DNA from: Escherichia coli | GTDB lineage: Bacteria; Pseudomonadota; Gammaproteobacteria; Enterobacterales; Enterobacteriaceae | DNA length: 64,000 bases | Direction: 5' to 3' (one strand) | NCBI RefSeq assembly: GCF_045037415.1 | Contig: NZ_CP173438.1 | Shown: piece by piece, positions 12,001 to 15,000 of the stretch | Layout: each line of letters begins with the position of its first letter | Position numbering within the stretch: position 1 is the stretch's first letter | Made by a program: the position numbers

Positions 12001-15000
12001 GATTCAACGCCTCCACCGCTTCTTTCAACTGCAGATGGCAGCCCGCCGTGATTGCCCCACCGCCTACGTAGACAACCGGTTTTTTTGCCGCCACCAGCGT
12101 TTGCAGAGCGCGCTTAATTTGCCCTTTATGCCCGGAGGTCGTGGGATTGTAAGAACGCATACTGACCGACTCCGGCCAGACATAGGGTAATTTGTTCGCC
12201 GGATTTAGAATATCTTTCGGTAAATCAACGACCACGGGTCCAGGACGACCACTTGCCGCTAGCCAGAAAGCCTTTTTCAGCACCTGCGGAATGTCTTCCG
12301 TTTGCTTAACCAGAAAACTGTGTTTAACCACCGGGCGAGAAATCCCCACCATGTCGCACTCCTGAAAGGCATCATAACCTATCAACGAAGTCGCTACCTG
12401 CCCGGAAAGGACAACTAATGGAATGGAATCCATATAAGCGGTGGCAATGCCAGTAATCGCATTGGTCGCCCCTGGACCCGACGTTACCAGCACGACGCCG
12501 ACTTCCCCGGTCGCGCGCGCCAGACCATCGGCCATATGCACCGCCGCCTGCTCATGGCGAACTAAAACATGATCGATACCACCCACGGTATGCAATGCAT
12601 CGTAAATATCAAGGACCGCGCCTCCAGGATAACCGAATACTTGTTTAACGCCCTGATCGATAAGCGATCGGACGACCATCTCGGCTCCAGACAACATCTC
12701 CATGGCCTGCCTCACTGTTTGACGGAAAAAATGTGTAAAACACATTAACCGTCCGATCTTGCTTAAGCAATTGGCAGACAGAGACATAAACACGGGGTAA
12801 TAAGAATAAACAGGAGGAAAGGTGAAAAGAAACGATAAAATCCTCCATTACAGAGGATGAAATTGATAATAAATCGGCTGAATCCTACAACTTACAGCAA
12901 TTTCTCTATTTTTTTAATTAATCCTAAAATAGAGAGCACAAATATTCAGAATAAAATTCTACATTCAATAAAAAATGCAGAATAAACCAGACATTGATGT
13001 CTGACCTATTCTGCATTCAGTTAGCGTTTGCAAATTGAGACTAATTGCTCTTCCATCCACTGATGGCCTTTATCGCGCCCGGCAGCTTCATGCCAGGAGA
13101 GATAACAGGTTCTGCTGTTTTGTTTTAACGGCAGCGGTAATACCTGTAACTCTAAGGATTCAGCGAACTCTTCAGCCAACCAACGCGGCGCAATAGCAAC
13201 CAGATGCGTTTGCGACACCACGCTAAGTACGCTCATCATTGCCATGCCCTGATACGCGATACTGGCTTGCTTATCTACCGTGTCATACCAGGTTTGACTA
13301 AATGACGCGAAACGATCGAGCGAAACCGCCGCATGTTGTTCGTTATAAACATCATGTTTCAGTAACGGGCCTTTAATTGTTGGATGATTTTTGCTGGCTA
13401 CCAACACCATTTCATCTTTAAATAATGGCACGCTGGTAAATTCAGGACGATGGAAGTCTTCATAACTAATCACAAACTCCGTTTCCTGATAACGCAGCTG
13501 ATGTTCAGTGTTCTGATTTAATGAAGACTTGAACATAACATGTATATTTGGCGCAATCTGCTCAATGTGATTATAAATCTGCGAGGTCAGAATGCTGTCT
13601 AACGGGCTGCAGACACAAAGATGAAATACACGTTCACTACTGGCAGGCTCAAAGCCTGAACCTGGTAATTCATTTTGTACTAATTGCAATGCCTGACGAA
13701 CTGAGCCAAAAAGTTGAAATGCGCGAGCAGTCGGTTGAATACCACGACCATAACGAACAAAAAGCTCGTCATTAAACATCACCTTCAGGCGTGCAACAGC
13801 GTTACTGACCGCAGGTTGCGACATTCCCAGAGCATGAGCGGCACGGGTGATGTTTTGCTCCTGCATCACGGCATCGAAAACGGTTAATAAGTTGAGATCG
13901 ACCATGCGTAGCTGTGGCTTGCTTAACTCCGCCGTCTCTGGATGATCTGTTTGTACCTCTGGCATACTTAACTCCACTGTCACACTTAACTCCCTTTCCC
14001 TTATTGGAATGCAGAGAAATAATCCTCGAGAATATGATTTATCATGCATATAAAATAAGAAAAAGCAAAATGAGTAAAATTAGGAAAACATAAAGATACG
14101 GGTTCTGATAAAAACAGAATCCACTGCCGAGCAAAGAGTCGTTTACTACAGCATAATAATCCATAATTTTTTTGTTGCGAAAACAATCTAATCATAACTA
14201 CCACGAATACTCAATCATCCACAAAATGGATTAAATGTGCTTTTTAATAATTAATTTATATGTTTAATGCATTAATTCTTAACATTAATTGATCAATAAT
14301 ATTCACCAAATGAATATCAAAAAATTCGCAAAACATATAATTCAATACAAATCATCAGGATAGGTTTTGTAACGCGTGCATTTTATCCCCCTTTCCCTCG
14401 TTGATTAGATGCAAAAAATTATTCTGAAATATGTCAACCGATGAAAAGCATCGGCGGTTAAGCAGAAATTAATATCGCTTGTTTTAACCACCGCAGCACA
14501 ATTAGCTAATTTTACGGATGCCGAACTCACAATGGCGTGACGTTTTTATTGCTTCAGGGTTGACATCCGTTTTTGTATCCAGTAACTCTAAAAGCATATC
14601 GCATTCATCTGGAGCTGATTTAATGACTCACATCGTTCGCTTTATCGGTCTACTACTACTAAACGCATCTTCTTTGCGCGGTAGACGAGTGAGCGGCATC
14701 CAGCATTAAGCCAGCACGCAGTCAAACAAAAACCCGCGCCATTGCGCGGGTTTTTTTATGCCCGAAGCGAGGCGCTCAAAAAGAGACAAGGACCCAAACC
14801 ATGAGCCAGCAAGTCATTATTTTCGATACCACATTGCGCGACGGTGAACAGGCGTTACAGGCAAGCTTGAGTGTGAAAGAAAAACTGCAAATTGCGCTGG
14901 CCCTTGAGCGTATGGGTGTTGACGTGATGGAAGTCGGTTTCCCCGTCTCTTCGCCGGGTGATTTTGAATCAGTGCAGACCATCGCTCGCCAGGTTAAAAA

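Follow-up and report, generated by a model that had tools for sequence, protein, structure and literature searches.

The leuO gene of Escherichia coli is transcribed away from the leucine operon, leuLABCD, and a long AT-rich intergenic region separates the two units. In the window, by which we mean the whole 64,000-nucleotide stretch of DNA that was analyzed, positions 13900-14700 are 100% identical to several RefSeq genomes, and the annotation of one identical genome places ilvIH and leuO (13021-13965) on the minus strand and leuL (14623-14709) and leuABCD on the plus strand. The annotated coordinates of leuO, leuL, and leuA are those of the open reading frames (ORFs) seen in the window. Neither the identical genome, nor K-12 MG1655, nor any of the sampled RefSeq E. 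coli genomes has an annotated feature inside the leuO-leuL gap. The principal elements of the locus are the following.

13021..13965, minus strand: leuO coding sequence, a LysR-type regulator of 314 amino acids (ORF, with the same coordinates annotated in an identical genome); left boundary of the tract
13966..14622, no strand: complete leuO-leuL divergent intergenic region, 657 bp, GC 0.33, of which the AT-rich tract covers the first 595 bp
14230..14301, no strand: AT-richest core, 72 bp with 86% A+T (the 318-bp segment highest in A+T, at 74.5%, is 14029-14346)
14560..14588, plus strand: leuLABCD promoter, with −35 TTGACA at 14560-14565, a 17-bp spacer, a predicted −10 TAACTC at 14583-14588, and a predicted start site near 14596
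14609..14757, plus strand: leucine operon leader/attenuator RNA, including leuL (14623-14709) and next to leuA (Rfam RF00512, 147.4 bits versus a gathering score of 50)

The tract begins at 13966, which adjoins the annotated leuO ATG (13965..13963, minus strand), and ends at 14560, the first base of the −35 hexamer of the leu promoter. The −10 element and start site of that promoter were placed from the spacing and from a leader length that we take to be about 160 nt. The leader/attenuator itself lies outside the tract coordinates and was used as a positive control.

An earlier note described about 600 bp of very AT-rich, non-coding DNA with many A/T runs between leuO and leu, and this description is confirmed. 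At a GC of 0.323, as compared to 0.524 for the whole window, 13966-14560 is the AT-richest 595-bp stretch of the 64 kb; an equally low GC occurs in just 0.14% of all 595-bp segments, and the minimum, 0.318, belongs to the same tract moved by 36 bp. Within it, the GC of 100-bp segments falls as low as 0.18 (14250-14349). The tract contains 19 A/T runs of at least four nucleotides, more than the 10.6 found in mononucleotide shuffles (p≈0.006) and the 15.0 found in shuffles that preserve dinucleotides (p≈0.08). The runs are real, yet they are largely a consequence of composition, and their excess is marginal once dinucleotide content is fixed.

H-NS silencing and the AT-rich body

Silencing of leuO in E. 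coli is due to H-NS and StpA, which act on promoters P1 and P2 in the gap (PMC5025477, PMC3950696). BglJ-RcsB activates P2, and BglJ-RcsB, LrhA, and LeuO counteract or modulate the silencing. LeuO also autoregulates leuO, and over 100 bp separate the published LeuO sites from the BglJ-RcsB site. ChIP work treats leuO as a known H-NS-bound locus in Salmonella, and silencing is relieved by invading transcription or by upstream supercoiling (PMC6797219, PMC10981669). A defined H-NS nucleation site has been reported at the Salmonella locus, and a published “promoter relay” couples the ilvIH, leuO, and leuABCD units.

Our own sequence proxies for H-NS binding were mixed. Predicted curvature, obtained from a wedge model, is raised: the mean lies in the top 1.1% of segments and above shuffles (p ≈ 0.013), with a peak at about 14325, though helical phasing of A-tracts (10-11.5 bp periodicity of AA/TT/AT) was not significant (p = 0.28). 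The 10-bp high-affinity nucleation motif, for which we assumed the consensus tCGwTwAATT, is found 21 times in the 64 kb when one mismatch is allowed, but never inside 13966-14622. We nevertheless accept the reading of the earlier note, that such a tract is an H-NS silencing element, because published experiments on the locus itself, in both E. coli and Salmonella, support it.

We thus consider it very probable that the tract is the shared control region of the divergent leuO and leuLABCD units and that its AT-rich body is an H-NS/StpA platform that silences leuO. We infer that the AT-richest core (14230..14301) is the main H-NS binding platform. The locus is an already known regulatory region, and the H-NS occupancy published for K-12 and Salmonella would extend to the present strain. 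AT-biased mutation in weakly constrained DNA could be a partial source of the AT-richness.

Conservation of length, composition, and discrete sites

For comparison across the family, the leuO locus was taken from 80 species-level Enterobacteriaceae genomes, in 79 of which leuO, leuL, and leuA were located; LeuO is 73-99% identical in the 80 loci. The gap measures 636 ± 21 bp (CV 3.3%) with a GC of 0.347 ± 0.021 across the 79 species, as compared to a mean GC of 0.511 for the surrounding 6-7 kb loci. The sole comparator for length, the neighboring leuO-ilvI gap, has a CV of 13%. The tract lies in the same place in all 79 species and is therefore not horizontally acquired, a possibility that we rule out; on this comparison, we regard it as ancestral to the family.

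The sequence inside this frame turns over. Relative to K-12, the gap of the window carries 31 substitutions and 3 indel columns, clustered in 14116-14165 and 14366-14560. This is a divergence of 4.7%, near the synonymous rate as judged from third codon positions (5.7% in leuO and 7.9% in leuA), and between genera several 20-bp segments are just 0.21-0.33 identical, near chance for such composition. The tract thus keeps its length and composition while most positions drift. Both the divergence and the near-chance segments are what one would expect if the tract were mostly a neutral spacer, with function confined to about 100 bp beside each gene and an unconstrained middle driven toward AT by mutation bias. 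We regard this explanation as improbable, since a length held in 79 species despite turnover is unexpected under bacterial deletion bias, since short conserved islands occur throughout the middle, and since published work has assigned silencer activity and regulator sites to that middle part. One possible reading of the constant length (636 ± 21 bp, at about 35% GC) amid sequence turnover is that the spacer serves as a “ruler”, either for a filament or bridge of H-NS or for the coupling of the divergent promoters through supercoiling.

Within the species, 5399 of the 5426 complete E. coli genomes carry the segment 13900-14700. The AT-rich core region (14100-14460) is present in 5378 of these 5426 and continuous in 5352, so that it is interrupted in roughly 26. 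The haplotype of the window is the less common one, and 3829 of the 5378 genomes are just 90-95% identical to it over the core region. In one genome, IS1 is inserted at 14270-14278, in the AT-richest core, with a 9-bp target duplication; in another, IS1 stands in place of leuO and the gap up to 14461.

The conserved islands lie at 13966-13985, 14026-14096, 14406-14445, and 14494-14509, and in the leu promoter from 14557 on, where TTGACA and the downstream block are kept in at least 80% of species. Shorter conserved motifs are found at about 14186-14215, 14237-14256, 14279-14296, and 14349-14362, that at 14279-14296 (TTAACAT…TTATCA) being an example of the short islands inside the AT-rich core. 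The earlier picture of the tract as AT-rich H-NS DNA is therefore upheld in its main reading and incomplete in that specific conserved sites, the marbox and the proximal leuO promoter block, are present as well. The sites that can be described individually are these.

13956..13991, no strand: tandem 18-nt copies, 83% identical (repeat search), one spanning the annotated leuO ATG and the other the upstream GTG
13966..13994, minus strand: leuO translation-initiation region, with Shine-Dalgarno GGAG at 13975..13972, an in-frame GTG at 13983..13981, and the Shine-Dalgarno-like GGGAG of that GTG at 13994..13990
14026..14096, minus strand: most conserved block of the tract, putative proximal leuO promoter P2 (0.64-0.82 identity to the window, 79 species)
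14406..14447, minus strand: conserved block with a promoter-like site toward leuO (TTTTCA-18-AATAAT, 14447..14418) and an Lrp-consensus-like 15-mer (14412-14426, one mismatch)
14496..14510, plus strand: marbox GCACAATTAGCTAAT, a MarA/SoxS/Rob binding site, identical to a published MarA ChIP-seq site

The leuO strand of the 14026-14096 block carries CTTTTTCTTATTTTATATGCATG(A/G)TAAATCATATT, which is nearly invariant between genera. A −10-like CATATT (14036..14031) in this block would put the P2 start site at about 14023-14028; in Salmonella, the start site assigned to leuO lies at a comparable distance upstream of the ATG. About 57 bp upstream of the start set by CATATT is TTTTCCTA (14088..14081, minus strand), which fits the BglJ-RcsB core wwTTCykA; the published BglJ-RcsB site, with this core, is 57 bp upstream of the P2 start. 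We tentatively take TTTTCCTA as the BglJ-RcsB box of P2, the positions of both P2 and its box being putative. The assignment is tentative because the gap contains four matches to the core motif. The conserved block at 14406..14447 is a candidate for the distal leuO promoter.

Other motif scans yielded no assigned sites. The best arms of the published 19-bp LeuO palindrome match at 7 of 9 positions (14271-14289, 14290-14308, and 14299-14317), and none was assigned. A scan with what we take to be the Lrp consensus found 10 places with at most two mismatches in the 64 kb, four of which fall in the gap; we claim no Lrp sites there, as the motif is AT-rich and its strongest conserved match is the marbox. 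The sigma-70 consensus scan gave two sites, as compared to 3.9 expected from shuffles, and is uninformative, since it missed the real leu promoter.

At the leuO end of the tract, an in-frame GTG preceded by GGGAG lies 18 nt upstream of the annotated leuO ATG. The codon at this −18 position is GTG or ATG in 72 of the 79 species and is always in frame and open, and in eight species the upstream start alone is present. The six codons between the two starts show no codon-position bias. The LeuO start is possibly mis-set or dual. Since the in-frame upstream start is kept in most species, the first 18 nt of the nominally non-coding tract may be coding in some or all of them.

The marbox is the best documented of the discrete sites. 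MarA ChIP-seq in ETEC H10407 lists gcacaattagctaat, labeled “leuL<>leuO”, with in vitro binding scored +++ (PMC5684230), and the orthologous site in Salmonella, which differs from GCACAATTAGCTAAT by one base, is bound by MarA, Rob, and SoxS (PMC10268841). Neither paper reports a regulatory effect or a target promoter for the leu marbox. In our comparison, 37 of the 80 species loci contain an exact copy of the overlapping 16-mer CAGCACAATTAGCTAA (14494-14509), whose core persists in nearly all of the 79 species; the identity of this 16-mer as a marbox came from a literature search with its sequence. The 15-mer fits GCACnnWnnRYYAAAY at all specified positions but one. Like the class I/II marboxes of the mar/sox/rob regulon, the site thus conforms to the consensus, and it is experimentally bound in two species. 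Unlike them, it sits some 92 bp ahead of the predicted leu start, in the orientation usually called forward; textbook class I/II marboxes lie closer to the start.

The distance from the marbox to the leu −35 element was determined in the 65 species in which our patterns found both. It is 64-65 bp in 51 of them, 66-68 bp in three, 53-56 bp in ten (about four lineages), and 75 bp in one. The larger departures, which arose in about five separate lineages, are all steps of 9-11 bp. This pattern suggests that the marbox is in helical phase with the leu promoter, which is indirect support for the idea that it may act on that promoter.

Searches for a hidden gene or RNA

The earlier note judged the short ORFs of the tract, including one of 67 amino acids at 14001-14204, to be unconvincing as coding sequence, and our results agree. 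The 67-amino-acid ORF exists mechanically on the minus strand and is intact in none of the 79 other Enterobacteriaceae species. Gap ORFs of at least 20 amino acids are intact in 0-4 of the 79, as compared to 72 of 79 for leuL. The period-3 substitution signal reaches at most 1.4 across the gap, versus 13-34 in leuO and leuA, although the same test misses the genuine 28-codon leuL as well and so has no power for tiny genes.

A second survey, with a threshold of 8 codons, produced the best candidate for a small protein gene, a 19-codon ORF on the plus strand (14034-14093). Its start, frame, and stop are kept in 48 of the 79 species, far above any other gap ORF save leuL, and its 60-nt length is almost free of indels. 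In the remaining 31 species, however, the ORF is broken by starts lost to ATC or ATT, by internal stops, or by lost stops, and the DNA block is still conserved there. Conservation is the same at its synonymous positions as elsewhere (entropy at codon positions 1, 2, and 3 of 0.73/0.69/0.86, as compared to 0.09/0.03/0.99 in leuA), its middle codons vary without pattern, its Shine-Dalgarno is not conserved, and it coincides with the leuO P2 promoter block. Consistently, the curated small-protein annotation of K-12 has yabR (the small protein YabR) in the next gap, leuO-ilvI, and nothing in the leuO-leuL gap. A small protein gene in the tract is thus very unlikely, and we read the 19-codon ORF as a by-product of conservation at the DNA level.

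A structured or regulatory RNA, either an sRNA or an element of the leuO 5' leader, is the least credible alternative and is highly improbable. Of the 30 single-strand segments of 120 nt contained entirely in the gap, two have folds of greater stability than shuffles (14426-14545 minus, z = −2.6; 14066-14185 minus, z = −2.0), and a perfect 6-bp hairpin, CCGATG-AAAAG-CATCGG, occurs at 14439-14455. About one segment with z < −2 is expected by chance among 30, however, which leaves the folding-energy scores within chance, and the hairpin region is poorly conserved (identity 0.28-0.55). Rfam gives no match at E ≤ 1 between 13061 and 14578, and for the leuO leader and promoter region of 27 species RNAalifold predicts no consensus base pairs. 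The earlier note had named a structured RNA in this interval as a finding that would count against its reading; by these three approaches, none was found. A conserved ORF or RNA structure is absent from the tract.

Probable regulation of the divergent units and comparison with known silencers

The tract, very probably a silencing platform and shared control region, would operate as follows. H-NS and StpA would polymerize over the leuO promoters and keep leuO off in ordinary growth. BglJ-RcsB, LrhA, and LeuO would act on leuO through discrete sites embedded in the tract, and MarA, SoxS, and Rob would bind the marbox, some 65 bp ahead of the leu −35. Transcription-driven supercoiling, together with LeuO binding, would relieve or delimit the H-NS filament and thereby couple the expression of ilvIH, leuO, and leuLABCD in the manner of the promoter relay.

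Among the closest known systems is the E. coli K-12 leuO region studied by the Schnetz laboratory, with its P1 and P2 promoters and its BglJ-RcsB, LeuO, and LrhA sites. It is the same region, 95% identical, and measures 659 bp as compared to 657 bp here. The candidate BglJ-RcsB box is kept between the two, as TTTTCCTA in the window and TTTTCCGA in K-12, both of which fit wwTTCykA. The leuO-leuABCD (leu-500) silencer and promoter relay of Salmonella Typhimurium occupies the orthologous locus, with the same gene order and a gap of 645-655 bp at a GC of 0.33, whereas its AT-rich middle is largely unalignable with that of E. coli. The silencer described there by the Wu laboratory is an AT-rich H-NS nucleation element whose size we take to be 72 bp. 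The bgl upstream element and the proU negative regulatory element are likewise AT-rich promoter-flanking DNA with H-NS filaments, and they share with the leuO tract counter-silencing by site-specific activators (BglJ-RcsB, LeuO) and by IS insertions. In contrast to both, the silencer described here lies between two divergent chromosomal core genes, is ancestral to the whole family, and shows no 10-bp high-affinity motif of the proU type.

The spacer of ruled length and the helically phased marbox can be read jointly, as the result of an undescribed selection for physical geometry. We put this forward tentatively, as a possibility that we think more doubtful than probable. If there is novelty left at the locus, it would lie in these same two features, the conserved spacer length and the phased marbox, and we hold that prospect to be equally speculative.

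Most of the useful results are negative or confirm earlier work: neither a hidden gene nor a hidden RNA was found, and, as judged from the species compared, the tract is an ancestral one whose length the family has kept. The DNA that silences leuO is biologically important and has been studied since the 1990s, and the window brings no new type of element. Its product, LeuO, is a master antagonist of H-NS, and genes for CRISPR-Cas, multidrug efflux, acid resistance, and virulence are under its control. Three modest leads emerge, namely, the LeuO start codon, the IS1 insertions in the AT-rich core, and the phasing of the marbox to the leu promoter. The rare natural IS1 insertions could derepress leuO. 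If the phasing is true, MarA, SoxS, and Rob would control leuLABCD directly, which to our own mind is plausible, as LeuCD is an oxidant-labile Fe-S enzyme.

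LeuO start region and the adjacent short ORF

The annotated leuO ATG (13965..13963, minus strand) is preceded 18 nt upstream by an in-frame GTG that has its own Shine-Dalgarno sequence, GGGAG, and the two start regions together make up a tandem 18-nt repeat. Of the 79 Enterobacteriaceae species in which leuO, leuL, and leuA were located, 72 have either GTG or ATG as the codon aligned to the upstream GTG; in 8 of the 79 the upstream codon is the sole leuO start. LeuO may begin six codons earlier than annotated, or may have two starts.

Beyond this region, a 19-codon ORF that is intact in 48 of the 79 species overlaps the conserved leuO promoter block (14026-14096). 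Judged from sequence, conservation of the ORF is at the level of DNA, not of protein.

Features at the leuO end of the intergenic tract
13956-13994, minus strand, candidate upstream LeuO start region (in-frame GTG and GGGAG)
14034-14093, plus strand, 19-codon ORF

Lrp-like sites and repeats between leuO and leuL

The Lrp consensus, with up to two mismatches allowed, has 10 matches in the 64 kb, four of which lie inside the leuO-leuL gap; one of these four is the marbox, the MarA/SoxS/Rob site. The match at 14412-14426 has a single mismatch and falls within a conserved block that also carries a promoter-like site directed toward leuO. Toward the right of the tract, where AT content is lower, lie a hairpin and an inverted repeat; neither is well conserved from genus to genus.

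Sites and repeats in the leuO-leuL gap
14149-14163, 14412-14426, and 14494-14517, Lrp-consensus-like matches
14439-14455, perfect 6-bp hairpin CCGATG-AAAAG-CATCGG
14452-14493, 10-nt inverted repeat CGGCGGTTAA…TTAACCACCG

Other loci in the window

The leuO-ilvI gap (12704-13020) is a second AT-rich stretch, with a GC content of about 0.29 at 12800-12999, and its length across species has two modes, approximately 318 and 385 bp. In K-12 the 14-aa small protein YabR is annotated there; its equivalent (12822-12860), in a RefSeq genome 100% identical over 13900-14700, is marked a pseudogene and flagged "too short". The second most AT-rich 595-bp stretch of the window is the fixA-caiT divergent intergenic region (59140-59734; GC 0.326).

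Between yabI and araC lie five genes with low-GC stretches (0.36-0.37) among them, and this interval looks like a strain-variable island because in K-12 yabI adjoins araC. The apaH-folA interval (50749-51299) carries an annotated chromosomal toxin-antitoxin pair of the CcdA/CcdB family.

Genes of the yabI-araC interval
25941-31113, tripartite tricarboxylate transporter (three genes), DHDPS-family protein, PfkB kinase

IS1 insertions in the tract

In one E. coli genome IS1 lies within the AT-richest core of the tract, at 14270-14278, with target duplication CATTAATTC; in a second, IS1 stands in place of leuO and of the tract as far as 14461.

E. coli loci bearing IS1
NZ_CP170374.1 (L002), 1880-2650
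NZ_CP065615.1 (L003)

The core is interrupted in about 26 of 5378 E. coli genomes. Insertions of the IS1 type in the tract could leave leuO derepressed or remove it.
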